NCBI GenBank assembly: GCA_045541535.1
Contig: JAZQJG010000066.1
Location: forward strand, 4,136 to 68,135
Source: Eubacteriales bacterium
GTDB lineage: Bacteria; Bacillota; Clostridia; Oscillospirales; QAKW01
Length of the DNA: 64,000 nt
Direction: 5' to 3'
The position numbers and the translations under genes were made by a program. Within the stretch, counting starts at the first letter, position 1. The number at the start of each line of letters is the position of its first letter. Shown here piece by piece: positions 14,232 to 30,186 of this stretch. Under the pieces are notes generated by a model, which was not told the origin of the DNA, made no database searches, and saw only the letters and a program-made list of their open reading frames with translations.

Positions 14232-14235
14232 CTGA

Positions 14236-14276
14236 CAAAAAGACAGGATTTTTCATCCTGTCTTTTTGTGTTTTTT
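14236..14276 (+). terminator. intrinsic terminator immediately 3' of the repeat copy
   Basis: Stem agacaggat-ttttc-atcctgtct, followed by tttttgtgtttttt. Confidence 0.75.
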
Positions 14277-14522
14277 GGGGGGCTTTACAGTCATTTTAAT
14301 ACATAAAAAAAGGGTGGTCAACGGGGCGGGAGGGGGAGATTTTGTTAATTTTGAATTTTTTTGCATATAGATATCCCGACGGCAGGGTTTACAAGCAAAA
14401 TAAAATGTGATACACTAAAAGATAATATAAATCAGGAAAAATCCAGCCCCCGGCGGCCGGAGAAAAGCGGGCGATTTTCCTGTGATATGCCGTCCCGACG
14501 GCAGGAGAAGAGAGGTAGACCG

Positions 14523-15629
14523 ATGGTAATTTTAGACGAGATCAAAATGAATCTGAGCGCCAAGGAGCCGGAGCTGAAAAACCTGAAAAAGGCCCTTGGA
14601 ATTGAGGAAAATCAAGGACGTTTGGCAGAGCTGGAAAAGCAGAGCGAGGCCCCCGATTTTTGGGACGATCTGGAAAACAGTCAGAAGGTATTGCGGGAGA
14701 TCAAGGGCATCAAAAACACCGCCGAGGAATATGCGGCATTGGAGAGCGCCTTTGAGGATATCGGCGCGATGATCGAGCTGGCCGAGGAGGAAGGCGAGGA
14801 GGATCTGGCAAGTGAGATTGCCGCCGAATACGCCGCCTTTGAGCAAAAGCTGGAGGCCGCCAGCCTGCAGGCCTTGCTGTCGGGGGAATATGACAAGAAC
14901 AACGCCATCCTCACCTTCCACGCCGGCGCCGGCGGCACCGAGGCCCAGGATTGGGCGGAGATGCTGTACCGTATGTACACCCGTTACGCCCAGCGCCACG
15001 ATTTCAAGATCACCGTGCTGGACTATCTGGACGGAGAAGAAGCGGGTATTAAGAGCGCTACCATTATGGTAGAGGGAATGTATGCCTACGGCTATCTTAA
15101 GTGCGAGATGGGCGTGCACCGTCTGGTGCGCTGTTCTCCCTTTGACTCCAGTGGCAGACGGCACACCTCCTTTGCTTCTCTGGAGGTTACCCCCGAGCTG
15201 GAAAACGACACCACCATTGAGATCGCCGACGACGACATCCGTGTGGACACCTATCGGGCCAGCGGCGCCGGCGGTCAGCACGTTAACAAAACCAGCTCCG
15301 CCATCCGGATCACCCATCTGCCCACCGGTATCGTGGTCACCTGCCAGAACGAGCGCAGTCAGCACAAAAACCGTGATATGGCCATGAAAATGCTGAAGAG
15401 TAAACTGTTGCAGATCAAGGAACGGGAGCATCTGGAAAAAATTGAGGATATCAAGGGCGATATGATGCAGATCGGCTGGGGCAGTCAGATCCGCAGTTAC
15501 GTATTTATGCCCTATACTCTGGCCAAGGATCACCGCACCGGCCACGAAAACGGCAACATCAACGCCGTTATGGACGGCGATATCGACGGCTTTATCACTG
15601 CCTCCCTGTTGGGCAAAACCGAGGAATAA
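14523..15629 (+). CDS. prfB: peptide chain release factor 2 (single ORF, no programmed frameshift)
   Basis: SPF tripeptide (RCSPFDS), GGQ ([11 protein letters not shown]) and PDFWDD near the N-terminus. The start is the ATG at 14523 after a GAGAGG RBS. Confidence 0.93.
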   Translation: MVILDEIKMNLSAKEPELKNLKKALGIEENQGRLAELEKQSEAPDFWDDLENSQKVLREIKGIKNTAEEYAALESAFEDIGAMIELAEEEGEEDLASEIAAEYAAFEQKLEAASLQALLSGEYDKNNAILTFHAGAGGTEAQDWAEMLYRMYTRYAQRHDFKITVLDYLDGEEAGIKSATIMVEGMYAYGYLKCEMGVHRLVRCSPFDSSGRRHTSFASLEVTPELENDTTIEIADDDIRVDTYRASGAGGQHVNKTSSAIRITHLPTGIVVTCQNERSQHKNRDMAMKMLKSKLLQIKEREHLEKIEDIKGDMMQIGWGSQIRSYVFMPYTLAKDHRTGHENGNINAVMDGDIDGFITASLLGKTEE

Positions 15630-15656
15630 ATCACAAAAATCAAGGACGTTAAAGTT

Positions 15657-16940
15657 ATGACGCTGATTGAATTTTTTGACGAAAACCGCATTGAAAACGT
15701 GGCCTGCGCTCTGATCTGTAAGGCGGAGCGGGTATATCTGCTGGGGGGCTCCCCTGCGGGACTGGCTGAGTATTGCAGACGGTATGGGGAGCTGACGGGT
15801 AAGGAATTTATTGCCCGCAGTATCAACCGCAGTAAGCTGACCGAAACGGTAAAAGAATTGGAAAAGCTGATCCACGAGATCCTTGCCGAGGATGAGGAAT
15901 GCGTGCTGGAGCTGGCCGGCGGAGACGATCTCTGTCTGGTGGCCGCCGGTATGGTGGCGGATCGGTTTGAGAGCGGGGTGCGTTTGTGTCGCACCAACGT
16001 TCCCCACAGCCGTATCGACACCTTTTATCCCGAGAGCAAGAGCTGCAGTGCACCCCTGCGACTGAGCATTGCGGAGAACGTGCGCATATACGGTGGCGGA
16101 TTGCATCTGACGGAGAACTGGGATCTGGAGGCTATCCGTCCCACCGCCGAGCTGTTGTGGAGTCTGGGAGAAGAATTTTCCGACTGGAACAGCCGTTGCG
16201 AGCTGATGGGGCGGATCCGCGCCAATTTCCCCGTGGATGCCAATAACAATCCTTTGACCGTGGAAGGGGACAAGACGGGCTATCTGCGCTTCGGCGGGCG
16301 GTTTTCCGATATTTGCAATCCCAATCATCTGGCCCGGCTGACCCGTGCCCAGTTGCAACAAGTGATCGAACTGTTGCAGGCCATCTGGCGGCGGCAGGGG
16401 GAGGAAAATCAGGTATTGCGTTCCCTGTTGGTGGATGAGCAGGCGGGGCTGTTGTATGCGGAATTTGCAAGTGAGAGCGCCAAGCGCTTGCTGGACAAAG
16501 CGGGTCAGGTGCTGGAGGTCTGGCTGGCCTGTCAGCTCAAAGAACTGAAGGAGCCCAAGGCCAAGGTGGGCGGTCCCTTTTTCCAGGATATCTGCGTGGG
16601 CGCAGAGCTGGATTGGGACGGTGTGGCCGAGCCGGACAATTTGCCCGACGTCAATAACGAGATCGACGTTATGGCCATGCGGGGAATGATCCCCATCTTT
16701 ATTTCCTGCAAAAACGGCAAGGTCAAAACAGAGGAGTTGTACAAACTCTCCCACGTGGCCGAGCGCTTTGGCGGGGAATATGCCAAAAAGCTGTTGGTGG
16801 CCCGCTCTCTGGGAGCGGAGGACAACGCCGAGATCAGCTTTGAAAAGCGGGCCAAGGAGATGGGCATCCATCTTATAGAGTTGGACGAACTGGAAAATAC
16901 ACAGCAACTGCTGTGGGAAATACAAAAACATTGTATGTAG
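15657..16940 (+). CDS. Card1-like (DUF1887) protein: CARF-like N-domain + PD-(D/E)xK nuclease-like C-domain
   Basis: The N-terminus ENVACALICKAERVYLLGG ... LELAGGDDLCLVAAG is Rossmann/CARF-like. The C-terminus NEIDVMAMRGMIPIFISCKNGK fits the DUF1887 restriction-endonuclease-like signature. Confidence 0.65.
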   Translation: MTLIEFFDENRIENVACALICKAERVYLLGGSPAGLAEYCRRYGELTGKEFIARSINRSKLTETVKELEKLIHEILAEDEECVLELAGGDDLCLVAAGMVADRFESGVRLCRTNVPHSRIDTFYPESKSCSAPLRLSIAENVRIYGGGLHLTENWDLEAIRPTAELLWSLGEEFSDWNSRCELMGRIRANFPVDANNNPLTVEGDKTGYLRFGGRFSDICNPNHLARLTRAQLQQVIELLQAIWRRQGEENQVLRSLLVDEQAGLLYAEFASESAKRLLDKAGQVLEVWLACQLKELKEPKAKVGGPFFQDICVGAELDWDGVAEPDNLPDVNNEIDVMAMRGMIPIFISCKNGKVKTEELYKLSHVAERFGGEYAKKLLVARSLGAEDNAEISFEKRAKEMGIHLIELDELENTQQLLWEIQKHCM

Positions 16941-16952
16941 AGGAGAAAAAAT

Positions 16953-17420
16953 ATGGGACTCAACAAAAGTGATCTGATCTTTGCCGCACTGCAGGCGGCG
17001 CTCAACAAAATTGATTGGAAGTACCGTGTACGGGAAAACAGCAGAATGATCGTCAGCGGTATGAGAGGGGACGATCTGCCCATTGACGTAAAGATCGACG
17101 TCAGAGAGGATATGGAGACCATTCTTTACGTTTCCGTCCTGCCCTTTGAGGTACCGGCTGAAAAGCGTATGGAGATGTGTACGGCCCTCAACGTCACCAA
17201 CTACGTATTAAGGGACGGTTGCTTTTCCATGGATATGGCCGACGGCAACGTGTTGTTTAAGCTGACCACCTGCTATCACGATTGTAACGTGGGAATGGGT
17301 CTGTACGTCCATTATCTGGAGCGTATGTGCGCCACGGTGGATCATTTTGACCGCAAATTGTACGAGCTGTCCACCGGTGAGATCACCTTGAAGGATTATA
17401 TTGCTTTTGTGATGGAATAA
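16953..17420 (+). CDS. YbjN-like (T3SS-chaperone-like) domain protein
   Basis: 155 aa. The pattern ..ILYVSVLPFEVPAEKRMEMCTALNVTNYVLRDGCFSMDMADGNVLFKLT is typical of the YbjN family as I recall it. Confidence 0.55.
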   Translation: MGLNKSDLIFAALQAALNKIDWKYRVRENSRMIVSGMRGDDLPIDVKIDVREDMETILYVSVLPFEVPAEKRMEMCTALNVTNYVLRDGCFSMDMADGNVLFKLTTCYHDCNVGMGLYVHYLERMCATVDHFDRKLYELSTGEITLKDYIAFVME

Positions 17421-17424
17421 AAAC

Positions 17425-18327
17425 GTGACCGGAGAAGAAATCTATCAAACAATAGAGGCGGCCTTGGTACAGAGAAACTGTACCGTTCGGCGGCAACAGG
17501 TATACGGTGTGCAATGGCTGGAAGCCGTGCGAAGGTCGGGGGATAGCGTAAGGGTGCAGTACTTGCAGTGGGAGAACGTATCGGAACTGGAGTTTACCGT
17601 TGCGTTGGCCACCCCGATCAAAAAGGAAAATACGGTTACGACCTGTGTGTTGGCCTCCCGCCCCCTCTACCCGTTCACCGTGGAAGGGAATCGGGTTTTG
17701 TACCGTCGGCGGTTTGCGTTGTCGGAGCCGGTGGACACCGAATATCTTATCCGCGCTCTGGAACGGATGTGGGCGGTTACGGATCGGTACGTTTGGTATT
17801 TTGCGGCGGTGGACGTTACGGCACAGCCAAAGCAGGTGTTGCCGGAGGATTTGCCGCCCATCAGCCATTCGTCAGACCGTCTGCAGGAGGCGGATTCCGA
17901 GAACTTTGTGGGCCTTGGGGAGGCATTTGAACAGGCAGGCTGTTACGTGGAAGCGCGGGACGGCCGCTTTGCCGCCACCCCGGAGGGCGGCTTTCCGTAT
18001 ATGGTATATCGGGAGCCGGAGTCGGCACAGTTGCGCATCTGCTATCGATTGGGGCGGATCCCACGGCACAAGCGGGCGGCGGCCTGCGTCCTTCGTTGCG
18101 CCCTGCAACGGGAGATGGAGGGCCTTTATCTGCAATTTGACGTGGATGATGGGACGTTGGAGCTTTGTTATGAGTTACCCTACTACGCCGCCCCGGAAAA
18201 TGATTTCATCGCCTTGGTTTTGAAAAGACTCTTTCGGCAACGTCGGAGGACAACGCGCTTTTTTAACCGATTAAACGACGGTTGTCCCCTGGGGGAGCTG
18301 TTGGAGGAACTGGGAGGTTTGGGATGA
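17425..18327 (+). CDS. hypothetical protein, apparently two YbjN-like modules
   Basis: GTG start 4 nt after the upstream stop. The second half, RICYRLGRIP..CALQREMEGLYLQFDVDDGTLELCYEL, repeats the YbjN-like pattern. Confidence 0.5.
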   Translation: MTGEEIYQTIEAALVQRNCTVRRQQVYGVQWLEAVRRSGDSVRVQYLQWENVSELEFTVALATPIKKENTVTTCVLASRPLYPFTVEGNRVLYRRRFALSEPVDTEYLIRALERMWAVTDRYVWYFAAVDVTAQPKQVLPEDLPPISHSSDRLQEADSENFVGLGEAFEQAGCYVEARDGRFAATPEGGFPYMVYREPESAQLRICYRLGRIPRHKRAAACVLRCALQREMEGLYLQFDVDDGTLELCYELPYYAAPENDFIALVLKRLFRQRRRTTRFFNRLNDGCPLGELLEELGGLG

Positions 18328-19220
18328 GCGCCAACGAACAACTGCTGGAATGTTTTGGAAAAGTATTGGCAGAACAAGGAATTTATTGCAGATTGGAGCA
18401 TTCTGCGTTGGTGGGGAGCGAGCCCTATCCCGTGTTGGTGCGGGCGGAGGGGTATTCGCTGAACGTTCGCATCGGCTACGGCCCCGCCAACGGACGGCAG
18501 CATTACGTGAAAACGGCGGTGCAATTGGCACGGGCCGGCGCATTTTGCGACACCGGCGGCACCTTTTGCCAAACAGAGGCGGCAGCGCCGGAATATCGCC
18601 GTACCTTTGTTTTTATCTACGATCCTACGCCGGACGTGCTGGAGGCTTGGGCGGAACAGCTTTTGCGCATTATGCATGGGTTTCGCGGCTTTATTTATGA
18701 GGGCAAGCCCATTGCATATCTGCCCGATCAACCCTTACGTTATAACGACAATCCCGAATTTTTGGGGCGGCTGGCACGGCGTAATATGCAACGGATGAAG
18801 CGATTTTTGATACAAGAGGACTTGCCCGCCACCGAACGGGACAATATGCTGGGCTGTGCCCTGCCGGAGGGAAGCGTTTTTACGATACAGCCAAACGTCA
18901 ACGGACAGTTTTTGCTGGTGAGCAGTCAACGGATTGACGTTCCCGATCATAAACTGGCATTGGCGGCGGCCTTTCAGGCCTTGCTCAATACCCGTATCGA
19001 GCCCTTTTACGTGGACACCCATCTGGAGGAGGGCTGGTTGCGGCTCTGCCTGACGCTGGATTATGCCGGTGGCACCCCCATCGCCTCGGAGAAGATGACC
19101 CTGTTGCGGGAATTTTCGGAAACGACGGAGCGGTTGAAGGAACTGTACAACACGCTGTTTCGGGAGGAAACGGACGTGCGTGCCCTGTGGCAAAGCATAT
19201 ATAACAGTGGACTGAAATAA
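18324..19220 (+). CDS. hypothetical protein, apparently two YbjN-like modules
   Basis: The ATG at 18324 overlaps the upstream TGA (ATGA coupling). The C-terminal half, ..ALLNTRIEPFYVDTHLEEGWLRLCLTLDY, is YbjN-like. Confidence 0.5.
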   Translation: MSANEQLLECFGKVLAEQGIYCRLEHSALVGSEPYPVLVRAEGYSLNVRIGYGPANGRQHYVKTAVQLARAGAFCDTGGTFCQTEAAAPEYRRTFVFIYDPTPDVLEAWAEQLLRIMHGFRGFIYEGKPIAYLPDQPLRYNDNPEFLGRLARRNMQRMKRFLIQEDLPATERDNMLGCALPEGSVFTIQPNVNGQFLLVSSQRIDVPDHKLALAAAFQALLNTRIEPFYVDTHLEEGWLRLCLTLDYAGGTPIASEKMTLLREFSETTERLKELYNTLFREETDVRALWQSIYNSGLK

Positions 19221-19230
19221 AGGAGAGGCT

Positions 19231-19764
19231 ATGTATACACCCCAACCCACCAAAACCGACCATATCACCCTGCCCGAAACGCTGTTACCCCTGCGGGAAA
19301 AGCTGGCGGAAAACGTCCATCGGGTATGGATGGAGACCCGCCTGTCCCAGGGCTGGCGCTATGGCCCCCGTCGGGACGACGAGCAACTGACCCATCCGGG
19401 GCTGGTGCCCTACGGGGAGTTGTCCGAATCGGAAAAGCGGTTTGATCGGGCCACCGCGCTGGGGACTCTTCGGCTGATTTTGGCGCTGGGCTATCGGATA
19501 ATTGCCGATGAGCAGACCGAGGGATTTCCGCCTGAGCTCTACCAACTGCAGGAGCAGATTGCCGAGGATATCCACGACATCTGGTCCAAGGGACGGCTGG
19601 AGCAGGGCTGGCGTTACGGCCCGGCGCGCAATGATGAAACGAAGGAGCACCCCTGTCTGGTGCCCTACGAGGAGCTCAGCGAGGAGGAAAAGGAATACGA
19701 CCGCCGTACCGCCTTTGAGACCTTATCCCTGATCCTTGCATTAGGTTATAAAATTTATAAATAA
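19231..19764 (+). CDS. tandem RyR (ryanodine-receptor repeat) domain protein
   Basis: Two internal repeats: AENVHRVWMETRLSQGWRYGPRRDDEQLTHPGLVPYGELSESEKRFDR..ILALGYRI and AEDIHDIWSKGRLEQGWRYGPARNDETKEHPCLVPYEELSEEEKEYDR..ILALGYKI. Confidence 0.75.
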   Translation: MYTPQPTKTDHITLPETLLPLREKLAENVHRVWMETRLSQGWRYGPRRDDEQLTHPGLVPYGELSESEKRFDRATALGTLRLILALGYRIIADEQTEGFPPELYQLQEQIAEDIHDIWSKGRLEQGWRYGPARNDETKEHPCLVPYEELSEEEKEYDRRTAFETLSLILALGYKIYK

Positions 19765-19772
19765 CGAGTAAG

Positions 19773-19805
19773 ACCGCCGTGGGAACGCCACGGCGGTTTT
19801 TTATT
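19773..19805 (+). terminator. intrinsic terminator after the RyR gene
   Basis: Perfect 10-bp stem accgccgtgg/ccacggcggt followed by T6. Confidence 0.8.
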
Positions 19806-19807
19806 TG

Positions 19808-19836
19808 TTGACAGTATATCAATAAAATTATATAAT
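19808..19836 (+). promoter_or_regulatory. consensus sigma-A promoter TTGACA-17-TATAAT
   Basis: Both hexamers are perfect with a 17-nt spacer, 40 nt upstream of the 19877 ATG. Confidence 0.7.
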
Positions 19837-19876
19837 TGTTCTATATATTGACAAATTCTGCAAAGGAAGTGCTTGT

Positions 19877-22800
19877 ATGAATAAAAGTAAAGCTTTAAGG
19901 GCAATGATGCTGACCGCTCTGCGCCGCACGGCGGCCTCCGGTATTTATAAAATTACGCCGGAGCAATTTTTACTTTGTGTGGCGGAGATCGATACGCTGA
20001 ACGCCGATTCGGAAGTGATGCGGGCGGTGGATCTGCTACGTCACAGGGCGGAGAATTTTGAGCGTTTTCAACAGGCACTGCAATATTTTCTTCGTTTAAA
20101 GCAGGGAGAGCCTGCGGAATTTGACGAGGCGCTGGAGCGTGCCGAAGAGAGAAGTCAGGCGGCGGAAAAAACGGAACTGACGCTGGATGCGCTGGTGGAG
20201 GAAATCCTGGAGGAGCCCGGCCGTAACGTGGGCTTTGCTCTGCTGTGTGAAGAAGCGGAGCTGGAATTGTTGCGGGCAGAACTGGAAGAGGAGGCGCAAG
20301 GGGCGTCTTCCGGCCGGGAGCGCACGGATGAGGAACTGTTGCAACTGCTGGAACGGTTACATCAGGTGGAACAGGAGGAAATGGCGGAGCTGATGGGAGC
20401 TCTCAATCCGGCGGATCTGGAACGGTTGGGCGAACTGCTTACCGAGCAGCATCCGGAGGTTTTGGAGGAGGATCCGGACCGTACCTATACCGATGAGGAA
20501 CTGTGGGCGCTGTGGGAGCAAATGGACGAAGCGGACGGCGACGAGGTAGACCGTGTTTTGGAGAGTTTGCCCCCCGCGGATCTGAAGCGTCTGGTGGAAC
20601 TGATTGAGGAAAAGCGAGAGGATCTGCTCACCGAACTGGCGGTGGATTTGGCAAATATGGAAGAAAAGGCGAAGGCGGAGGATTCCGCATCCGAGCTTTC
20701 GGTGGAGGAAAAGGCGAAACGTGCCATTCTCACCCTGGACCGTATGATGAAACAGGGGGATCACGTGGGGGCCTTCACAATGATCCAGAACACCGAGCCG
20801 CCCGTGGCTATGGAGATCATTTCTTTGATGCAACAGGCCGGTATGTTGGAGGAGGATGCCGCCGAGCAGTTGCGATATGCGCTGGGCGGCGAGGAAGCCC
20901 TGCAACAGAAACCCGAAGATATGGAAGAAAACAAAGGAGCCGAGGAGCCCCGTGCAACGGGCAAACTCTCGGACTTTTTGGCAGAGCTTTTGGGCACCGC
21001 CATGGCAGAGGCTGAAGAAGTGCTTGGGGAGGAGACCGAACAGGTGATCACCGAGAAAGAGGAGGCGGCAGACGTTGACGCCATCACCCGACTGGTGACC
21101 CGTGTCAACGACATTCGCACCAAGCTCCTTGGCAAGGTATTTGGTCAGGAGCACGCCGTGGACGTGTGTGTGACCGGTTTGTTTAATGCGGAGTTTGCCG
21201 CCCTCACCGGTCACGAGACCAACAAGCCCCGGGCCACCTTCCTCTTTGCCGGACCTCCCGGCGTGGGTAAGACCTATCTGGCTGAATCTATGGCTGAGCT
21301 GATGGGACTGCCCTATCTGCGGGTGGATATGAGCGAGTTTGGTAATTATCACGGCTCCGAGCGCTTTAGAAACGTTCTTCAATTCGTGAAGGAAAAGCCC
21401 AAAAGCGTTATTTTGTTTGACGAGATCGAGAAGGCCAACGGCGAGGTTATCAATCTGTTTTTGCAGATTCTGGACGCCGGCAGAGGCGGCGAGGCGCCCC
21501 GTGCGGTCAGCTTTGCCGAGACCTATCTCTTTTTTACCACCAACGTGGGTCGGGGGCTGTACGAGGGCACCGATCAGACCGATCTCTCCGGCAACAGCCG
21601 CAAGGTGATCCTGCGGGCCTTGGAGCAGGAGATCAATCCCCAGACCCGTCAGCCTATGTTCCCGGCGGCCATCTGTTCCCGCTTTGCCACCGGTAACGTG
21701 GTGATGTTCAATCACCTGCCCGCCCACCAGCTTTGTCGCATTGCCAAGGACGTGATCCTGCGGCGGGCAGAGGGTGTGGCCAACAAGATGAATCTGCAGG
21801 CGGAATTCGACCCTGCCGTTTTTTCCACCGTTCTTTTTGCCCAGGGCGGTCGGGCCGACGGCCGTACGGTAACCGCCTGTGCCAACGCCTTCTTTGAGGG
21901 TGAGCTGTACGAGCTGTTCCGTATGGTCCACAGCAAGGCGGAGGACAAGAAGATCGGCAACATCCGTCGGGTGCGCTTTACCCTGGAAATGCCCGAGGAT
22001 GAAGAACTCCGCAAGCTGTACGTGGCAGAGGAAAAAATGAAGGTGCTGATGTTTGCCGATTCCCTGACCGGCGCCCTGCAACGCCCTGCCTGTAACCAAT
22101 GTGAAATTCTGACCGTGGATAATATTCCCCAGATGGAGCTGCTGTTGGCCACCGAGCCCATCCGTCTGGTGCTGTGCGATATTTCCTACGGTTTTAAAAC
22201 CAGTGATTATCTCAACACCGAGGATTGCAGCTCCCGTGGACGGGATTGCTTTAAAAGACTGCGGGAGCGGCATCCCGCTTTGCCCGTTTATCTGCTCCAC
22301 GACGGTTTGAGTGACGAGGAAAAGGTTTCCTTTACCCGTGAAGGGGCCAGAGGATTTTTTGAGAAAACTGCCATCCATCATCCGGAGACCATGACGGCCT
22401 TGGACGAGATCGCCCTGCAGCTTCATCAGCAGGAGAGTATGTACGCCCTGGCCAGTACCAATCGTATGGTGGATTATGAAACGGCCCAGCGGATCTCCGA
22501 GGACGGCGAGAGCTGTGAGATCCGTATCTTTGATCTGTGCACTCGGGTCAACGTGGACGCCGAGGATCGCGACAGCGTGCTCTCCGCCTTGGAAAAACCG
22601 GACGTAAACTTCGCCGACGTGATCGGCGCCAAGGATGCCAAGGAAGAACTGCAGTTCTTTGTCAATTACCTGCGGGATCCCAAGGCCTTCCGCAAAAGCG
22701 GGACCAAGGCGCCCAAAGGCGTTCTGCTCTACGGCCCTCCCGGCACCGGTAAGACTATGCTGGCCAAGGCCATGGCCAACGAATCCGGCGTCACCTTTAT

Positions 22801-23920
22801 TGCCAGTGAGGGCAACGCCTTTTTGAAAAAATGGGTGGGCGAGGGCCCGCAAAAGGTGCACGAGCTGTTTGCCACCGCCCGTAAATATGCGCCCGCCATT
22901 ATTTTCGTGGACGAGATTGACGTGATCGGCAAGGAGCGCTCGGGAGACGACGGCACCGGCTACAAGCCTGACGATATTCTCACCGCGTTTCTGGCCGAGA
23001 TGGACGGCTTTGCCGCCAACCCCGACAAGCCGGTCTTTGTACTGGCCGCCACCAATTACAGCGTGGAGGCGGGCAATGCCAAGAGTCTGGACGGAGCGCT
23101 GTTGCGGCGCTTCGACCGGCGGATCCTGGTGGATCTGCCGGATAAGGAGGAACGGTTGCGCTATCTTAAACTGCGCACCGAAAAGGATACCTTCTTTAAG
23201 GTCAGCCAGGCGCAACTGGAGAGTCTGGCCGCCCGTTCGGCGGGGATGAGCCCCGCTTTGCTGGAGGGTGTGCTGGAAATGGCCAAGAGAGAAGCTCTCA
23301 AGGACGGCGCTTCCGCAGTGGACGACAATATGCTGGACCGTGCCTTTGAGACCTACAACAGCGGAGAGGAAAAGGTGTGGAATCCCGATCAGCTGGAGCG
23401 GGTGGCCTATCACGAGGCAGGACACGCCTTGCTGAGCTGGCTGGCGGGGGACAAGCCCACCTACATCACCATCGTGGCCCGTGGCAATCACGGCGGCTAT
23501 ATGCAACACGGTGATAACGAGGGCAAGGCCATCTTCACCAAGGATGAATTGTTGGCGCGCATTCGCACCTCTTTGGGTGGACGGGCCGCCGAACTGCTAC
23601 ATTACGGCGACAAAGACGGCGTAACCACCGGCGCCTCCGGTGATCTGGCCTCGGCCACCGAGCTTGCTACCCATCTGGTTTGCTCCTACGGTATGGACGC
23701 CGACTTCGGTCTGGCGGTGATTTCCCCCGAAGCGGCCTATAAGGGCGGCTTGGCGGAAGAAATCCGCGCCACCGTTAACGTCTTGCTTCAGGAACAGTTG
23801 ACCCGGGCCATCGGGCTGTTGCAGGAGCATCAGAACAAACTGGAGGCTATGGTGGAGCGCTTGTTGGACTGCAACCACCTGACTGCCGAAAAAATCGAGC
23901 AGATCTTTGCTGAAAATTAA
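19877..23920 (+). CDS. soluble dual-AAA+ metalloprotease chimera (acidic N-region, Clp-D2-like AAA+, receiver-like domain, FtsH-type AAA+ and M41 peptidase)
   Basis: Walker A FAGPPGVGKT and Walker B VILFDEIEKA, preceded by GQEHAV (Clp D2 style). Second Walker [11 protein letters not shown] and Walker B IIFVDEIDV. Zn motif HEAGH and GASGDL are present. There is no hydrophobic TM segment, unlike the canonical ftsH at 40733. Confidence 0.8.
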   Translation: MNKSKALRAMMLTALRRTAASGIYKITPEQFLLCVAEIDTLNADSEVMRAVDLLRHRAENFERFQQALQYFLRLKQGEPAEFDEALERAEERSQAAEKTELTLDALVEEILEEPGRNVGFALLCEEAELELLRAELEEEAQGASSGRERTDEELLQLLERLHQVEQEEMAELMGALNPADLERLGELLTEQHPEVLEEDPDRTYTDEELWALWEQMDEADGDEVDRVLESLPPADLKRLVELIEEKREDLLTELAVDLANMEEKAKAEDSASELSVEEKAKRAILTLDRMMKQGDHVGAFTMIQNTEPPVAMEIISLMQQAGMLEEDAAEQLRYALGGEEALQQKPEDMEENKGAEEPRATGKLSDFLAELLGTAMAEAEEVLGEETEQVITEKEEAADVDAITRLVTRVNDIRTKLLGKVFGQEHAVDVCVTGLFNAEFAALTGHETNKPRATFLFAGPPGVGKTYLAESMAELMGLPYLRVDMSEFGNYHGSERFRNVLQFVKEKPKSVILFDEIEKANGEVINLFLQILDAGRGGEAPRAVSFAETYLFFTTNVGRGLYEGTDQTDLSGNSRKVILRALEQEINPQTRQPMFPAAICSRFATGNVVMFNHLPAHQLCRIAKDVILRRAEGVANKMNLQAEFDPAVFSTVLFAQGGRADGRTVTACANAFFEGELYELFRMVHSKAEDKKIGNIRRVRFTLEMPEDEELRKLYVAEEKMKVLMFADSLTGALQRPACNQCEILTVDNIPQMELLLATEPIRLVLCDISYGFKTSDYLNTEDCSSRGRDCFKRLRERHPALPVYLLHDGLSDEEKVSFTREGARGFFEKTAIHHPETMTALDEIALQLHQQESMYALASTNRMVDYETAQRISEDGESCEIRIFDLCTRVNVDAEDRDSVLSALEKPDVNFADVIGAKDAKEELQFFVNYLRDPKAFRKSGTKAPKGVLLYGPPGTGKTMLAKAMANESGVTFIASEGNAFLKKWVGEGPQKVHELFATARKYAPAIIFVDEIDVIGKERSGDDGTGYKPDDILTAFLAEMDGFAANPDKPVFVLAATNYSVEAGNAKSLDGALLRRFDRRILVDLPDKEERLRYLKLRTEKDTFFKVSQAQLESLAARSAGMSPALLEGVLEMAKREALKDGASAVDDNMLDRAFETYNSGEEKVWNPDQLERVAYHEAGHALLSWLAGDKPTYITIVARGNHGGYMQHGDNEGKAIFTKDELLARIRTSLGGRAAELLHYGDKDGVTTGASGDLASATELATHLVCSYGMDADFGLAVISPEAAYKGGLAEEIRATVNVLLQEQLTRAIGLLQEHQNKLEAMVERLLDCNHLTAEKIEQIFAEN

Positions 23921-23927
23921 CCCTGTT

Positions 23928-23950
23928 CCCGACGGGCCTCGCCCGTCGGG
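23928..23950 (+). other. GC-rich stem-loop between the protease and membrane-protein genes (no U-tract)
   Basis: Perfect 10-bp stem cccgacgggc-ctc-gcccgtcggg followed by GGAAAGGA (the RBS of the next gene). Confidence 0.5.
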
Positions 23951-23964
23951 GGAAAGGATATGAT

Positions 23965-26499
23965 ATGCAACAGTTTTTAGAAGCCTTTTTGGCACTTCTC
24001 GGCAAGAAAACCTATCCGGCAGAGCCAAAGGTGATGCTGATCACCACGGCCCTGTCCCTGCTGGTGTTGGCGCTGGCCATCGGCATTGCGCTCAAACGAC
24101 GCAAGCCCACCGGCGGCAAGCCTTTTCCCTTTTCCCGTGGCATCGTATCGGTGGCTCTCATTGCCTTTTCGGTGTTTATCTACGTATTTCCCTTGCAGAT
24201 GTACGTGTATCTGGGAGATTATCAAGGGGAATGGGATCTGGGAGCGGCTATTGCGCTGGCCCTTTACGAAACGGTCCGTGTCTTTCTGGTGGGCGCCGAT
24301 TTTAACTTTGTGAAGGATGCCGTCAGCACCAGCTCCGATATTTTGCAGAGCTTTTGCGTGATTTACGGCGGCCTGCTGTATGCCTTGGCTCCGATGATGA
24401 CCATCGGCTTTGTGCTCTCTATGTTCAAGGATTTCTGGGCGCAGGTGCGCTTTATGATGCCCCGGTATTTCCGTACCACCTATTACGTTTTTTCCGAACT
24501 CAACGAGCGCTCTCTGGCCCTGGCCACCAGCATCTGCCGGCAATACCATTCTCCCTGGGACAGATGGTTTAGGGGGGCAAAGACTGCCTCTTTAAATGCG
24601 GCACAGCCCGTGGAGCAACCCACGCCTTACGAAGCGCAGGGCGAACTGCTGAAGAGCGTGCAGGCACAACTGGCACAGGTGGAAAAGAGGCTGCGGGAGG
24701 CGACGGGGGATGAAAAGCGGGATTCGCTTACGGTCCAACGGCAACAATTGCTGGAATTGGAGCAGACGCATCGGCATATTTTGGAAAACGCTCCGCAAGA
24801 GGTGCGGGTAAAATACCTGAAGGAAGAAGACCGGGGTGCCGCCCGAAAGTCCTCGGTCAACCGGCGGAAGCCCTATTTCGGTAAGCCCATCATCGTGTTT
24901 ACCGACGTATACGTGCAAAACGAGGAGCGACCCTACGAGCTGACCGCCAGAGCCAGAGAATTGGGCGCTATCTGCCTGAAAAAGGATATTACCACCCTGA
25001 ACGTACATAAACGGTGGAACGGTGTGGAGTTTTACGTCATAGGCGAGAACGAATCGGAAAATCTGCATCACGCCTTGCATCTGGTGGAGCAATGCGCCCA
25101 GCGTCCGGTAAAGGTGCGCCGCAGAGTGTATATCTTCGCTCGCACCGAAACGGCGGCCCATATCATTGATTCGGCCCAAGGACAGGAGTTGACGGAACTG
25201 CGGGAGCAGTTAAAAGAATCCTTTGCAAAAAATGAAGAAAAATTTGCCGCCAACACAGAGGATCCCGGCCTGATCAAGGCCAATATTCAAAAAATGCTGC
25301 AGGCCCATCAACGGATGAGCGACGAGCGGCTTATGATCCGCAGGGTGGACGACGTGCAACTGTTGGTACTGCGCACTTTGAGGCAGGCAAAGCTCTTTGA
25401 ATCCGCCAAAAGCACCGGCAAGATCTGTATCACCGTGGCCGGTATGGGCGAATACGGCAGAGCCTTTGTTAAAACCGCCCTGTGGTTTTGCCAGACCGAG
25501 GATTATTTTCTGGAGCTCAACGTGATTGATGAAAACGGTGATGCCCAGCAACGGCTGTGGCACGAATGCCCCGAGCTGATGGCCCGTAACGGCGTCGTTG
25601 AGGCAGGGGAGGCCCGTTACAGTATGCGGTTTTTCAGCGGTGTCAACTGCTTTGACAAAACGCTGGACGAATTGCTGGAGGGCAAGAAGGGCTTTACCGC
25701 AGAGGATGCCGCCCGTCTGGGCCGCACCACCCATCTGTTTATCGCCTTGGGCGACGATGATCGCAATATTGAGGCGGCAATGATGTTCCGCAATCGCTTT
25801 GATCGCCTGCGGGGCTTTCGGGCCAATAAGAAGATCAAACCGGAAGAGGAAACTCTTGCCATCTATGCCGTGGTCTACGACGATCAAAAGGCGCACAATC
25901 TGGATATTTCCGAGAATGACAAGCAGACGCTGATCAACCACGAGAGCATCCCTTATAATATCAATTTCATCGGCAGTATGAGTGAGCAATATCGGTACGA
26001 CTTTTTCCACGACGACGAGGAGGAGCATCGGGCCTTTGCCTATCATATGGATTGGGCGGCCTCGGAATTTGCCATCCGTCTGGCAGAAGCCCGCAGGCAG
26101 GGCGCCGTGGCGGTGGATCTTACCTATTTGGATCAGTTGTCCGACCCCGAAGAAGCCTATCAAGATATTATGAAATACGAGCAGTACGAGTATTATCGGG
26201 AGTCCTCCCTGGCCAAGATGCACCATCGAGAAGCCAGTCTGGATGCCATGCCCAAACGACTGCTTTGTCACTACGTCTTACCCACGGAAACGCCGGAAAG
26301 ACGGCGACAGGTGAAACCCTACGTTGGCTGTCAGTGTGAGAACTGTCAGCGCCGCCGTCGCAGTGAGCATATGCGCTGGAACGCCTATATGCGCGCCCAG
26401 GGCTACGTTTTCGGTCCCCGCAAGGCCACCCGCGGCAAGGTCCACGCAGATCTCAAGCCCTTTGCCGGGCTACCCCTTCACGAGCAGCTTAAGGATTAA
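23965..26499 (+). CDS. membrane protein with Rossmann-like (TrkA-N-like) central region and C-terminal RyR-like domain
   Basis: About 4 N-terminal hydrophobic segments, a coiled-coil-like stretch and a glycine loop ICITVAGMGEYG. The C-terminus SEHMRWNAYMRAQGYVFGPRKATRGKVHADLKPFAGLPLHEQ resembles the RyR repeat of the 19231 gene. Confidence 0.65.
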   Translation: MQQFLEAFLALLGKKTYPAEPKVMLITTALSLLVLALAIGIALKRRKPTGGKPFPFSRGIVSVALIAFSVFIYVFPLQMYVYLGDYQGEWDLGAAIALALYETVRVFLVGADFNFVKDAVSTSSDILQSFCVIYGGLLYALAPMMTIGFVLSMFKDFWAQVRFMMPRYFRTTYYVFSELNERSLALATSICRQYHSPWDRWFRGAKTASLNAAQPVEQPTPYEAQGELLKSVQAQLAQVEKRLREATGDEKRDSLTVQRQQLLELEQTHRHILENAPQEVRVKYLKEEDRGAARKSSVNRRKPYFGKPIIVFTDVYVQNEERPYELTARARELGAICLKKDITTLNVHKRWNGVEFYVIGENESENLHHALHLVEQCAQRPVKVRRRVYIFARTETAAHIIDSAQGQELTELREQLKESFAKNEEKFAANTEDPGLIKANIQKMLQAHQRMSDERLMIRRVDDVQLLVLRTLRQAKLFESAKSTGKICITVAGMGEYGRAFVKTALWFCQTEDYFLELNVIDENGDAQQRLWHECPELMARNGVVEAGEARYSMRFFSGVNCFDKTLDELLEGKKGFTAEDAARLGRTTHLFIALGDDDRNIEAAMMFRNRFDRLRGFRANKKIKPEEETLAIYAVVYDDQKAHNLDISENDKQTLINHESIPYNINFIGSMSEQYRYDFFHDDEEEHRAFAYHMDWAASEFAIRLAEARRQGAVAVDLTYLDQLSDPEEAYQDIMKYEQYEYYRESSLAKMHHREASLDAMPKRLLCHYVLPTETPERRRQVKPYVGCQCENCQRRRRSEHMRWNAYMRAQGYVFGPRKATRGKVHADLKPFAGLPLHEQLKD

Positions 26500-26511
26500 C
26501 TTAAGTTTTGC

Positions 26512-26540
26512 TTGACAAAAATTCGGGCCCTCATTATAAT
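26512..26540 (+). promoter_or_regulatory. consensus sigma-A promoter TTGACA-17-TATAAT
   Basis: Perfect hexamers with a 17-nt spacer, directly upstream of the riboswitch. Confidence 0.7.
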
Positions 26541-26549
26541 ATTAATAGT

Positions 26550-26716
26550 GATTCCCAATGAGGGAGTAGCAACCGTCCGTCGGACGGAGTTCGGTCAACA
26601 ATCGGCATTTTGCCTGGCCGACTTTAAACTGCGAGACTCATGTATGATCCTTTCGACGTACATCGGTCGGCTAAAACATCCAAACCCGTGTACACTAAAG
26701 GTGTACGCGGGTTTTT
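26550..26716 (+). promoter_or_regulatory. yybP-ykoY (Mn2+) riboswitch with terminator expression platform
   Basis: AAUGAGGGAGUAGC (26557-26570), GGUCAACAAUCGGCAU and UUUAAACUGCGAGACUCAU match the conserved cores. P1 is aatgag/ctcat. The terminator aaacccgtgtacac-taaag-gtgtacgcgggttt plus T5 lies at 26682-26716. Confidence 0.7.
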
Positions 26717-26741
26717 CAATTTACACAAGGGAGAACAAGGT

Positions 26742-29366
26742 ATGAAGTTTTACAACAACACCCCGGAAGAGATCTTTACGTCTCTGGAATGTAGTGAAAA
26801 CGGTCTTTCCGCCGCCGAGGCCGCTGCCCGGTTGGAGAAAAACGGCCCCAACAAATTGGCCGCCGCCAAGGGAAAGAGTATTTTCCGCCGTTTTCTGGAG
26901 CAGTTGATGGATCCGATGATCATCATTCTGCTCTTTGCCGCCGCCATCAGCGGCGTGATGGCTGTGGTGGAAAACGAGAGCTTTGCCGACGTGATCATCA
27001 TTCTGGCCGTCGTTTTGATCAACGCCGTGTTGGGCGTGTATCAGGAGAGCAAGGCGGAAAAGGCCATTGAAGCCCTGCAGGAAATGAGCGCCGCCACCAG
27101 TAAGGTCATCCGGGACGGCGTGCTCAAGGTCGTTCCCAGCGAAAGTCTGGTAGTGGGCGATATCATTGCTCTGGAGGCCGGCGACGCCGTGCCTGCCGAT
27201 GCCCGCCTGCTGGAAAGCGCTTCGCTGAAGGTGGAGGAGGCCGCCCTGACCGGTGAGTCCGTCCCCGTCGACAAGGTGATCAAGCTGTTGGGTCTGGAGG
27301 GGGAGGACGTCCCTCTGGGCGACCGTAAAAATATGGTTTATATGGGCGGCACCGTGGTGTACGGCCGTGGCAAAGCGGTGGTCACCGCCACCGGTATGGA
27401 TACCGAGATGGGTAAGATTGCCGACGCTCTTACTGCCGCCGAGGAGGGGGATACCCCTCTGCAGAGAAAGCTCCATCAGCTTTCTAAAATTCTGACCTGG
27501 CTGGTACTGGGCATCTGTCTGGTGGTGTTCGGCGTGCAGTTATTGCGTGCCGGCGGCTTTGAATTTGAGGTGGTACTGCACTCCTTTATGGTGGCGGGTT
27601 CTCTGGCCGTTGCCGCCCTTCCCCAGGGTCTGGCCGCCGTGGTTACGGTGGTGCTGTCCATCGGTGTTACCAATATGTCCAAGCGCAACGCCATTATCCG
27701 TAAACTGACGGCGGTGGAAACGCTGGGCTGTGCCCAGATCATCTGCTCCGACAAGACCGGCACCCTCACCCAGAACAAGATGACGGTGGTGGACGCCTTC
27801 GGCTGTGATGAAAAGCTGACCGCCGCCGCTATGGCCCTTTGCTCCGATGCGGAATTGGATCAGGAGGGCGAGGTCACCGGTGAGCCCACCGAGGCCGCTC
27901 TGGTGGTTTGGGCCGACAAGTTAGGGCTCAACAAAAACGCTCTGAAAACTGCCGCTCCCCGTGTGGGCGAGGCTCCCTTTGATTCCGGCAGAAAGATGAT
28001 GTCCACCGTTCATCAGCAGGACGGTAAATTGGTGCAATACACCAAGGGCGGTATGGACGTACTGCTGGCAAAATGCACCTATTATCTCAAGGACGGGCAA
28101 CCCGTACCCATCAACGAGGAATATAAAAACGAGGTGATCTCCGCCGCCGGCGCCATGGCAAACAAGGCCTTGCGCGTGCTGGCCTGCGCCACCCGTACCC
28201 ACGATACCATGCCCGAATGTACACCGGAAAATCTGGAGCAGGAGCTCTGCTTTATCGGTTTGACGGGTATGATCGATCCTGTTCGTCCCGAGGTCAAGGA
28301 CGCCATTACCGAGTGCCGTAACGCCGGCATCCGCGCTATTATGATCACCGGCGACCATATTGACACCGCTCGTGCCATTGCCGCAGAGCTGGGCATCCTC
28401 ACCGAGGGTGTATGCGCTGTCAGCGGCAGTGAGCTGGACAAAATGGACGATGAAACCTTTGAGAAAGAATTTCAGTCCATCGGCGTGTACGCCCGCGTAC
28501 AGCCCGAGCACAAGACCCGTATCGTCACCGCCTGGAAAAAGGCGGGATATATCACCGCTATGACCGGTGACGGCGTTAACGACGCCCCCTCCATCAAGAG
28601 CGCCGACATCGGCGTGGGTATGGGCATCACCGGTACCGACGTTACCAAAAACGTGGCGGATATGGTTCTCACCGACGATAACTTCGCCACCATCGTGGGC
28701 GCCGTAGAGGAAGGCCGCCGAATTTACGACAATATCCGTAAGGCCATTCAGTTCCTGCTGGGCTCCAATATGAGTGAGGTCATTTCTATCTTCGTGGCCA
28801 CCCTCATCGGCTTTACCATTCTGGAGCCGGTGCATCTGTTGTGGATCAATCTGGTCACCGACACCTTCCCCGCCCTGGCTCTGGGTATGGAAAAGGCGGA
28901 GCGGGACGTAATGAAGCGTAAGCCCCGTGATTCCAAGGCCGGCATCTTCGCCGACGGTATGGGTGTGGACGTAGTCTATCAGGGTCTGATGGTTTCCGTG
29001 CTCACTCTGGCCTCTTACTTCATCGGCTGTTATCTGGAGACCGGTGTCTGGGCCTTCGTTCAGGAGCCCCACGGCATTACCATGGCTTTCCTTACCATGT
29101 CCATGGCCGAGGTATTCCATTCCTTCAATATGCGTTCCCAGCGTGGTAGCATCTTTACGATGAAATCCCACAACAAGGTGCTGTGGCTGGCCATGCTTGG
29201 CTCCTTTATCGCCACCACCGCCGTATGTGAGATTCCCTTGCTGGCCGGCGCCTTCGGTCTGACCGCCGTCAACCTCACCGAATACGCCATTGCCATCGTA
29301 CTGGGTATGGCCGTTATTCCCGTGGTGGAACTGGTCAAATTTATTCAGAGAAAATTGGCAAAATAA
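26742..29366 (+). CDS. P-type (PII, Ca2+/Mn2+-type) cation-transporting ATPase
   Basis: DKTGTLT, TGDGVNDAPS and TGES motifs, with N-terminal GLSAAEAAARLEKNGPNKL. The start is the ATG at 26742 after a GGGAGAA RBS; the listed ORF extension overlaps the riboswitch terminator. Confidence 0.9.
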   Translation: MKFYNNTPEEIFTSLECSENGLSAAEAAARLEKNGPNKLAAAKGKSIFRRFLEQLMDPMIIILLFAAAISGVMAVVENESFADVIIILAVVLINAVLGVYQESKAEKAIEALQEMSAATSKVIRDGVLKVVPSESLVVGDIIALEAGDAVPADARLLESASLKVEEAALTGESVPVDKVIKLLGLEGEDVPLGDRKNMVYMGGTVVYGRGKAVVTATGMDTEMGKIADALTAAEEGDTPLQRKLHQLSKILTWLVLGICLVVFGVQLLRAGGFEFEVVLHSFMVAGSLAVAALPQGLAAVVTVVLSIGVTNMSKRNAIIRKLTAVETLGCAQIICSDKTGTLTQNKMTVVDAFGCDEKLTAAAMALCSDAELDQEGEVTGEPTEAALVVWADKLGLNKNALKTAAPRVGEAPFDSGRKMMSTVHQQDGKLVQYTKGGMDVLLAKCTYYLKDGQPVPINEEYKNEVISAAGAMANKALRVLACATRTHDTMPECTPENLEQELCFIGLTGMIDPVRPEVKDAITECRNAGIRAIMITGDHIDTARAIAAELGILTEGVCAVSGSELDKMDDETFEKEFQSIGVYARVQPEHKTRIVTAWKKAGYITAMTGDGVNDAPSIKSADIGVGMGITGTDVTKNVADMVLTDDNFATIVGAVEEGRRIYDNIRKAIQFLLGSNMSEVISIFVATLIGFTILEPVHLLWINLVTDTFPALALGMEKAERDVMKRKPRDSKAGIFADGMGVDVVYQGLMVSVLTLASYFIGCYLETGVWAFVQEPHGITMAFLTMSMAEVFHSFNMRSQRGSIFTMKSHNKVLWLAMLGSFIATTAVCEIPLLAGAFGLTAVNLTEYAIAIVLGMAVIPVVELVKFIQRKLAK

Positions 29367-29480
29367 TTTTTTCGGCACAGCCTGTCGGCTGTGCCGAAAA
29401 TTGCGAAAGGGCAAAAAAAGTTGCGTTTTTCGGTAAAAACGCGGTACAATAATAATGATTTTACACAGGGAGGATAAATT

Positions 29481-29771
29481 ATGGACCCCAATACTCAGCC
29501 CGATTATATTGCGCTCGGGATGGTCATCGTACTGCTGGTGATCGTGGCGGTGCTCTTCGTTCGTAAGTGGCTGTCCAACCGTGCCGCCGCCAAGGCGGAG
29601 TCGGAGACCGCCGTATCAAGTGTCGCCCCTGCCCCCGGTACCGGCGGCAAACTGCGACTGAATAGCGTTGATCCCAAAACGGCGGCAATGCTGATGGCCA
29701 TCGTGGCCGATCAAACCGGCAAACCGCTCAACGAACTTCGTTTTATTTCCATCGAGGAGGTTGATGAATAA
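29481..29771 (+). CDS. OadG/GcdD-like small membrane subunit of a Na+-translocating decarboxylase
   Basis: 96 aa with one TM and the C-terminal PKTAAMLMAIVADQTGKPLNELRFISI motif of the decarboxylase delta/gamma family. Confidence 0.7.
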   Translation: MDPNTQPDYIALGMVIVLLVIVAVLFVRKWLSNRAAAKAESETAVSSVAPAPGTGGKLRLNSVDPKTAAMLMAIVADQTGKPLNELRFISIEEVDE

Positions 29772-30172: not shown

Positions 30173-30186
30173 GAAGGGAGTAAACT

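Follow-up and report, generated by a model that had tools for sequence, protein, structure and literature searches.

A 64,000-nucleotide stretch of the genome of Eubacteriales bacterium (NCBI GenBank assembly GCA_045541535.1, contig JAZQJG010000066.1; hereafter the window) carries, directly behind the release factor 2 gene prfB, a gene for a protein in which a CARF domain is joined to a PD-(D/E)xK nuclease domain, as in Card1, Can2 and VC1899. On the reading that we favor, to which we assign a probability of roughly 60%, this Card1-like protein is a CRISPR-independent and probably active CARF nuclease with a pocket rebuilt for a ligand other than cyclic tetra-adenylate (cA4), and it forms the core of a variable module of RyR, AAA-protease and YbjN genes in gut Clostridia. 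Its ligand, activity and biological role are those that we infer from the evidence below. A first-pass annotation, made from the sequence of the window, had recognized a Card1-like (DUF1887) gene and regarded it as an orphan with a possibly degenerate nuclease motif. As judged from conservation within the family, the part that has truly diverged from Card1 and Can2 is the ligand pocket of the CARF domain, not the nuclease site.

To our knowledge, CARF nucleases are understood almost wholly as effectors of type III CRISPR systems that answer to cyclic oligoadenylates (cOAs), and VC1899 is the only orphan to have been studied, without a ligand or function. The proteins described here, which read S-C-K in the nuclease motif and are referred to as the SCK branch, form a distinct branch of DUF1887 outside type III CRISPR. 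They define a large orphan CARF-nuclease branch with a variant, apparently intact site, a rebuilt pocket and recurrent partners, and thereby offer a way to ask what CARF domains sense outside CRISPR.

Fold and nuclease site of the Card1-like protein

The assignment to DUF1887, which had been made from the sequence alone, is borne out by family and fold searches. The Pfam model PF09002 (Card1_endonuc) matches residues 273-424 with 32.7 bits against a cut-off of 26.4 (33.7 bits in a six-frame search of the genome), the CARF4--CARF_PDDEXK models of PADLOC match the protein (best 4.8e-20), and its N-terminus, MTLIEFFD, agrees with the consensus of the homologues, MTxIEFFD. In total, 153 homologues were collected; among the best 120 listed, most are about 390-450 aa long, and the named ones come from Clostridia metagenome-assembled genomes (MAGs). 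An alignment of 43 homologues at 26-61% identity (A1) was used for the family profile, the conservation counts and structure prediction. The resulting AlphaFold2 model has a mean per-residue confidence (pLDDT) of 92.1 and a predicted TM-score (pTM) of 0.90. With Foldseek, its top match in the PDB is VC1899 (1xmx; E 2.5e-22, TM-score 0.70/0.78), followed by SthCan2 (7bdv), Card1 (6xl1/6wxw), 8bao, Cdn1 (9u49), TbrCan2 (8q3y) and Can1 (6sce); Csm6, Cam1 and Csa3, which match through the CARF domain only, rank lower. A phmmer search of the PDB with the single protein gave no match, and only the A1 family profile reached 1xmx, 7bdv and 8bao. The protein is a complete CARF plus PD-(D/E)xK chain of the DUF1887 structural family and, by analogy with that family, would be a dimeric-type CARF-nuclease.

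The nuclease signature quoted by the first-pass annotation, NNEIDVMAMRGMIPIFISCKNGK, is found in the translated open reading frame (ORF), and the annotation had given E-C-K as the family's sequence at the place where this protein reads S-C-K. This was correct. When the A1 profile is aligned with PDB chains, the family sequence F-I-S-C-K-N-G falls on IECK in VC1899 (1xmx), IECK in SthCan2 (7bdv) and VECK in 8bao, and S350 replaces the Glu of the ExK motif. The conclusion drawn from this, a degenerate motif in a sensor that does not cleave, is not upheld: S350 is fixed in 43/43 homologues together with E287, E335, D337 and K352. Also invariant in 43/43 are G283, L286, N334, P346, F348, C351 and G354, and in A1 no part of the protein is better conserved than the C-terminal domain. 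The AlphaFold2 model shows the canonical alpha-beta-beta-beta order: helix 282-295, which bears E287, then strand 311-319, strand 335-342 with E335 and D337, and strand 345-352 with S350 and K352.

Two characterized nucleases help to place these residues. In SthCan2, E276 and D278 are essential (Zhu et al., 2021; PMC7969007), and their counterparts here are E335 and D337. TbrCan2, an active cA4-dependent nuclease, is likewise without ECK, its Ser356 occupying the place of Card1 Glu308 and SthCan2 Glu291; its DNase activity requires E304, D343 and K369, and its second metal depends on E341 (Jungfer et al., 2023; PMC10783487). Each of these four TbrCan2 residues has an invariant counterpart in the SCK branch. 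Because the catalytic set is invariant in 43/43 homologues, the topology is canonical and a Ser is also present in the active TbrCan2, the site does not appear to have decayed; as predicted from conservation, it is most likely functional and likely metal-dependent.

The opposite proposal, that the change from Glu to Ser killed the nuclease and left a pure ligand sensor, a sponge or a ring-nuclease-like regulator, which might for example titrate the signal for the RyR and protease genes, is in our judgment unlikely. It accommodates the Ser in place of a metal-coordinating Glu, the weak, unregulated RNase activity in vitro of VC1899, the closest fold match (PMC7969007), and the fact that CARF domains of several families act as ring nucleases. 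However, five catalytic positions fixed in homologues that share as little as 26% identity are hard to square with a dead site, and both the activity of TbrCan2 with Ser (PMC10783487) and the strong conservation of the C-terminal domain argue for a working nuclease.

Glu and Ser also interchange at this position among kinase-fused relatives. One of them (L070) reads VSCK and another (L072) reads IECK, the motif differing in that residue only. These fusions are about 1400 aa long, with a Ser/Thr kinase at the N-terminus and a Card1-like CARF-nuclease at the C-terminus, and lie at G121:C12, 5018-9253 (L070), and G030:C262, 967-5139 (L072), both on the minus strand. A PP2C phosphatase gene adjoins the L072 fusion.

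Sensor pocket and the search for a signal source

In Can2, the NxTGGTK motif contacts cA4 (PMC10783487). The A1 profile aligns this motif of SthCan2 with (D/E)-L-T-G-G-(D/E)-(E/D) in the SCK branch. In the window protein, the altered motif reads L86-A87-G88-G89-D90-D91, with G88-G89-D90-D91 placed on T-G-G-T-K of SthCan2; the residue at position 90 is acidic in 36/43 homologues and that at position 91 in 42/43. Four cA4 contacts are common to Can1 and Can2, namely S19, T42, K99 and Y118 (PMC7969007). Their counterparts here are D8 (37/43), a variable residue, E/D91 and R112 (R/K in 39/43), and none of the four contacts is kept in the SCK branch. The same four residues are replaced in VC1899, whose pocket is acidic or hydrophobic and which does not respond to cA4 (PMC7969007). 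Since the T-K pair is now acidic and no shared cA4 contact is retained, as in the cA4-unresponsive VC1899, the alignment makes cA4 an unlikely ligand, and a conserved H111-R112 pair suggests one that bears phosphate.

The first-pass annotation had found no cas gene, CRISPR array, Cas10 or CD-NTase in the window, and searches of the whole assembly with four models and a k-mer scan agree. With 2.25 Mb in 118 contigs, the assembly reaches 97% completeness at 0.07% contamination, and the contig that holds the window measures 75.7 kb. Models for Csm1 (TIGR02578), Cmr2 (TIGR02577), Cas1 (PF01867) and SMODS (PF18144) gave no match at E<=1 anywhere in it, and a k-mer scan for CRISPR arrays returned two ordinary tandem repeats only. 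These two CRISPR-like candidates (G000:C20:8000-8284 and G000:C81:42-226) were rejected, having a period of about 90 nt and near-identical "spacers"; the repeat copies of the second carry terminator-like hairpins. MAG assemblies often miss arrays and short contigs.

The distribution of the family was assessed in a sample of 401 genomes of the same order, each at least 90% complete. The Card1-like family is patchy, occurring in 54/401 genomes (13%) and 33/183 genera of the order, and in 6/49 genomes of the taxonomic family. None of the 54 carriers has Csm1 above cut-off, and the eight Csm1-positive genomes of the sample all lack the Card1-like family; likewise, Cmr2 above cut-off was found in 0/53 other carriers, with one sub-threshold match on a different contig. 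Most matches to the Csm1 model in the sample were rejected as Cas10: they cover only model positions 7-122 (the HD domain) in proteins of about 520-550 aa and lie below the cut-off. When 185,579 species genomes were scanned with a pattern, 564 relatives emerged (at least 564 species-level loci), of which the best 80 are all from Clostridia. The SCK branch is so far confined to gut Clostridia (Acutalibacteraceae, Oscillospiraceae, Ruminococcus and relatives). A tblastn search found no Card1-like homologue in phages and, in plasmids, one weak DUF1887 match on a Peptoclostridium megaplasmid.

These results bear on the idea of a conventional cOA effector split from its synthase, which would answer cA4, cA6 or a signal of the CBASS type from a type III or CBASS system encoded at another site, on a contig missing from the assembly or on a mobile element. 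The overall architecture is the same as that of the cA4-activated Card1, Can2 and Cdn1, and in an assembly of this completeness pieces may be missing. Nevertheless, we regard the idea as very unlikely, given the genome without Csm1, Cmr2, Cas1 or SMODS, the lack of Csm1 in all 54 carriers and of the Card1-like family in the eight Csm1-positive genomes of the order sample, the lack of Cmr2 above cut-off in other carriers, and the replacement of all four cA4 contacts and of the T-K of NxTGGTK, two of them by acidic residues.

Other potential signal makers in the genome comprise one DAC cyclase and six TIR_2 loci, which lie on contigs C56, C54, C30, C10, C117 and C95, none of them near the cluster; five are above the Pfam cut-off, and ORFs of 1602 and 1766 aa are among these loci. 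The cluster itself has no TIR gene, and a TIR gene adjoins a Card1-like gene only in L016, a metagenome contig described below.

Partner genes and the variable slot

The Card1-like gene heads a cluster of seven genes (Table 1), and it is here that the term orphan has to be qualified: the gene is an orphan as far as type III CRISPR and CD-NTases are concerned, but not in its context, which links it statistically to the RyR, AAA-protease and YbjN genes downstream. Partners were sought in 27 loci and in the best 80 of the 564 relatives, which partly overlap the 27, giving 107 neighborhoods. At least one partner lies within about 10 kb in 14/27 loci (RyR-bearing genes in 11, AAA-M41 in 8, YbjN in 5), and a partner is also present in 35/80 loci (the transmembrane (TM) RyR gene in 24, AAA-M41 in 23, YbjN in 10, the small RyR gene in 6). 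Partners often stand a few bases from the Card1-like gene, in changing orders and across at least seven families. AAA-M41 homologues that are 43-61% identical adjoin Card1-like genes in L009, L016, L048, L049, L050, L054 and L060, and YbjN-like homologues, often as a tandem pair, immediately precede the Card1-like gene in L044, L046, L048 and L059. The window copy of the membrane Rossmann/RyR protein is 32% identical to the neighbor in L009. RmlD, YgjV, GHMP kinase, M23 peptidase, PHP, YfhO, SpoIIIA and a GFO/IDH/MocA oxidoreductase were rejected as partners and attributed to housekeeping synteny.

Table 1. Positions of the Card1-like gene, its domains and motifs, and the surrounding features in the window
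Feature	Position	Strand	Basis or remark
Region compared for the slot between prfB and the P-type ATPase/OAD operon	14361..31287		compared with L060 and L013
Terminator upstream of prfB	14235..14269
Promoter-like site upstream of prfB	14388..14416
prfB (release factor 2), upstream neighbor	14523..15629	+	PCRF/RF-1 homologues at the same position in L013; 96% identity in L060
Card1/Can2/VC1899-like CARF + PD-(D/E)xK protein ("SCK clade"), 427 aa	15657..16940	+	ORF, PF09002, PADLOC, AlphaFold2, Foldseek
CARF (Rossmann) domain, about residues 1-155	15657..16121	+	profile alignment, Foldseek
Altered ligand motif, residues 86-91	15912..15929	+	A1 profile
PD-(D/E)xK nuclease domain, residues 273-424	16473..16928	+	PF09002, model topology
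Catalytic residue E287	16515-16517	+
Catalytic residue E335	16659-16661	+
Catalytic residue D337	16665-16667	+
Catalytic residues S350-C351-K352	16704-16712	+
YbjN-like protein, 155 aa, recurrent partner	16953..17420	+	PF10722 YbjN, 25.3 bits against a cut-off of 22
Two proteins without a family match (300 aa; about 298-312 aa), between the YbjN and RyR genes	17425..19220	+	ORFs
Stand-alone protein of two RyR repeats, 177 aa	19231..19764	+	PF02026, 2.8e-60
Intrinsic terminator (strong, 13-bp stem; 19770-19800), then 12/12 sigma-70 promoter (19808-19836)	19770..19836	+
Soluble double-AAA+/M41 (FtsH-type) protease, 1347 aa, recurrent partner	19877..23920	+	Pfam AAA, AAA_2, Peptidase_M41
Membrane Rossmann/RyR protein, 844 aa, recurrent partner	23965..26499	+	about 4 TM helices, two Rossmann (RCK-like) domains, C-terminal RyR-like half-domain
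Second perfect sigma-70 promoter, downstream of the membrane gene	26512..26540
Terminator-like hairpin, 15-bp stem, just within the 5' end of the P-type ATPase ORF	26682..26714

Co-occurrence across the order points the same way. The Card1-like gene is present in 24/34 genomes with a TM-RyR gene (expected 4.6, odds ratio 27), in 19/33 genomes with a PF02026 match (expected 4.4, odds ratio 12.9) and in 17/21 genomes with a canonical RyR protein of about 100 aa. In half of its carriers the nuclease occurs without a RyR partner, which makes it the core of the module and the remaining genes accessories.

The RyR proteins would provide a link to nucleotide signals. In this genome, PF02026 matches only the RyR genes of the cluster. 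The 177-aa protein has two sets of residues, H30/W33/H55/D72 and H115/W118/H140/D157, spaced as the ligand residues H75/W78/H100/D117 of RyDEP, and the end of the membrane protein has H802/W805/H827/D844 at the same spacing, a correspondence that is based on spacing rather than on alignment to RyDEP. Across 59 homologues of the membrane protein, a GxGxxG motif is invariant, and the RyR residues show little or no variation. Its AlphaFold2 model (pLDDT 81) has about four TM helices and two Rossmann domains; Foldseek gave weak matches only, to the RCK gating rings of CASTOR and DMI1 (best E 0.013), and the model allows the protein to be tentatively described as channel-like. A recent preprint reported that RyR domains bind or cleave cyclic ADP-ribose (cADPR) signals and that the phage protein RyDEP cleaves or sequesters 2'/3'-cADPR (Lopez Rivera et al., 2026; PMC13232231). 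By this analogy, the module looks as though it handles nucleotide signals, but a maker of the signal is absent nearby.

The partner genes fall into two transcription units because a terminator and a promoter sit between the RyR gene and the protease gene; the promoter, predicted like the terminator from sequence, is a perfect TTGACA-17-TATAAT that starts within 8 nt of the terminator. Upstream, the stop codon of prfB ends at 15629 and the ATG of the Card1-like gene is at 15657, leaving a spacer of 27 nt, in which a consensus scan finds no terminator. The first-pass annotation had thus been right about the missing terminator and off by one in the gap, which it gave as 28 nt. With this short gap and no terminator, the Card1-like gene and prfB are probably co-transcribed, and the first unit is probably read through from prfB, itself preceded by a terminator and a promoter-like site. 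From the Card1-like gene through the RyR gene, the spacings are 12 nt, 4 nt, an overlap and 10 nt. The two middle proteins have no match in Pfam, NCBIfam or PADLOC, and the idea that they are tandem YbjN modules is not borne out by sequence, as a hidden Markov model built from nine partner YbjN genes misses both at E<=1. No TM segment is predicted in the 1347-aa protease. Downstream of the membrane gene there is a second perfect sigma-70 promoter, and the hairpin at the start of the P-type ATPase ORF could be a leader or an attenuator. No Rfam family reaches its gathering threshold in the 13-32 kb part of the window.

The slot that holds the cluster, between prfB and the P-type ATPase/OAD operon, proved hypervariable in comparison with two relatives. 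Its flanks are conserved (prfB 96-97% and the P-type ATPase 89-90% identical in amino acids), and the Card1-like protein in the same slot is 39% identical in G003, of the same genus, and 59% in L013. The cargo consists of the Card1-like and protease genes in G003, the Card1-like gene alone in L013 and seven genes here. Conserved flanks around a fast-changing cassette are a pattern typical of accessory or defense hot spots and, by that analogy, the Card1-like gene would head a variable cassette inserted between conserved prfB and P-type ATPase genes. In the closest relative, L013 (1818-2907), prfB is split over two frames, which cover residues 1-121 and 130-368, and the prfB of the window is in one continuous frame; the split, at a distance from the canonical codon-26 site, may reflect either a frameshift or an error in assembly.

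Its place behind prfB raises the idea that the protein has a housekeeping role with translation termination, for example as an RNA-quality-control nuclease co-expressed with release factor 2. The short spacer is in keeping with such a role, and prfB is adjacent in G003, L013, L056 and 6/80 further loci. Yet the gene is present in only a minority of genomes of the family and of the order, it diverges to 39-59% identity where prfB stays at 96-97%, and most loci have no prfB nearby, such that a role of this kind is hardly credible.

Another alternative is that the protein senses a housekeeping or invader-made metabolite, such as c-di-AMP, ppGpp, Ap4A or RNA ends with a 2',3'-cyclic phosphate, and acts alone, without dedicated partners, and that the RyR, protease and YbjN genes are just frequent neighbors in the same variable islands. 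About half of the loci have no partner, 27/54 carriers lack both a RyR and a TM-RyR gene, the AAA and membrane genes have a promoter of their own, and the genome encodes a DAC cyclase; there is also a precedent in a TIR-SAVED effector that senses host c-di-AMP without a cyclase (bioRxiv 10.1101/2025.06.19.660554). Nonetheless, the reverse dependence is strong, with the Card1-like gene in most genomes that have TM-RyR (24/34) or small RyR genes (17/21), and partners within a few bases, in varying orders and in at least seven families exceed what co-residence in an island would lead one to expect. We therefore regard this alternative as improbable, about on a par with a dead nuclease.

Under the favored reading of a CRISPR-independent nuclease with a rebuilt pocket, a dimer of the CARF domain would bind a small molecule other than cA4, which would turn the nuclease on. 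Candidate ligands include another signal derived from a nucleotide, a conjugate that is cationic or of the ADP-ribose type, and a housekeeping messenger. The idea that Can2-like orphans respond to SAM-AMP from CRISPR loci of the CorA type is not supported for the SCK branch, since neither cas nor CorA-type genes recur around it and the carriers examined lack Cas10, although the acidic pocket would suit a cationic ligand. Activation of the nuclease might result in a stress or anti-phage response. The RyR proteins would probably bind or degrade nucleotide signals and thereby buffer or pass on the signal that the nuclease senses, with the protease and the membrane protein as probable further outputs. 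A more specific version assigns the SCK nuclease the part of core effector in a hitherto undescribed, CRISPR-independent immune module of gut Clostridia that works by nucleotide signaling. Its partly acidic pocket would sense a non-cOA ligand, for instance a nucleotide conjugate that is cationic or derived from ADP-ribose, RyR proteins would buffer, degrade or relay it, and a channel-like TM-RCK-RyR protein and a soluble Clp/FtsH protease would be parallel outputs; this is a tentative proposal that we consider doubtful as a whole.

Several observations weigh against the favored reading. Replacing Glu with Ser takes away one inner-sphere metal ligand, for which TbrCan2 compensates through an SxTTS motif and a relocated Lys, both absent here, and by analogy with VC1899 the activity could be weak or specialized. 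For the SCK branch at large, we infer nuclease activity, ligand and dimerization. No cas family, TIR, cyclase or other signal-making enzyme recurs in the 107 neighborhoods, leaving a proposed signaling pathway without its first step. A strong terminator followed by a separate promoter sets the protease and membrane genes apart. The co-occurrence statistics ignore shared ancestry, although the co-occurring genomes span at least seven families, and, as noted, half of the carriers have neither a RyR nor a TM-RyR gene. Finally, the proposed role in defense draws on patchiness, the variability of the slot and analogy, and the outcome of the phage and plasmid searches speaks neither for nor against it.

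Relation to known systems and further loci

VC1899 of Vibrio cholerae (1XMX), the founding member of DUF1887, is the closest known counterpart. It is the best fold and profile match, an orphan without a type III CRISPR link, and its pocket, with acidic residues, likewise lacks the cA4 contacts of Can2, in line with its lack of activation by cA4 (PMC7969007). Unlike the SCK branch, VC1899 keeps E-C-K; the identity is about 17%, and RyR, AAA-M41 and YbjN partners are not reported for it. The SCK branch has, in addition, its own conserved H111-R112 pair and the acidic GG(D/E)(E/D).

Can2, Card1 and Cdn1 (7BDV, 6XL1/6WXW, 8BAO, 8Q3Y, 9U49) share the full-length domain order and fold and the E...ExD...K core, and clade 1 TbrCan2 also shares the Ser at the position of the ExK Glu (PMC10783487). 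In contrast to these effectors, the SCK branch has no Cas10 in the carrier genomes examined, NxTGGTK and the cA4 contacts are replaced, and the neighbors are RyR, AAA-M41 and YbjN genes instead of cas genes. With respect to TbrCan2 in particular, the branch lacks SxTTS, and its Lys stays at the canonical xK position.

The partner RyR proteins resemble phage RyDEP (PMC13232231) in having the His-Trp-His-Asp tetrad of ligand and catalytic residues at identical spacing. RyDEP serves phage counter-defense against Thoeris, whereas here the RyR genes belong to the chromosome and are linked to a CARF nuclease, and no TIR synthase recurs beside them; similarly, the ThsB-type TIR signal synthase of Thoeris is absent from the cluster. 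A further likeness, in concept, is to CalpL-CalpT-CalpS (CRISPR SAVED-Lon) and other type III sets with multiple outputs, in which a single small-molecule signal drives one or more of a nuclease, a protease and a membrane effector. Here, however, the protease is a soluble Clp/FtsH fusion without CARF or SAVED, and there is neither a sigma/anti-sigma pair nor CRISPR. Among the papers available to the literature search, none linked CARF and RyR. If the proposed link is true, it would put RyR domains on the host side of nucleotide signaling, as a counterpart of phage RyDEP, and would connect CARF sensing with ADP-ribose-type chemistry.

Two other loci illustrate the range of neighborhoods. In L044 (G393:C5, 11200-15510), the Card1-like gene is preceded by two YbjN-like genes and has immediately behind it a pair of paralogous TM-Rossmann-RyR genes (611 and 731 aa) together with a RyR gene of 100 aa; an AAA protease is missing from this locus. 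In L016 (1-21317), a trio of Card1-like, AAA-M41 and 776-aa proteins has polymorphic-toxin-like genes (Endonuclea_NS_2, LHH, TNT, SUKH immunity) on one side and, on the other, a pair of TIR_2 proteins that includes a fusion to NUDIX.

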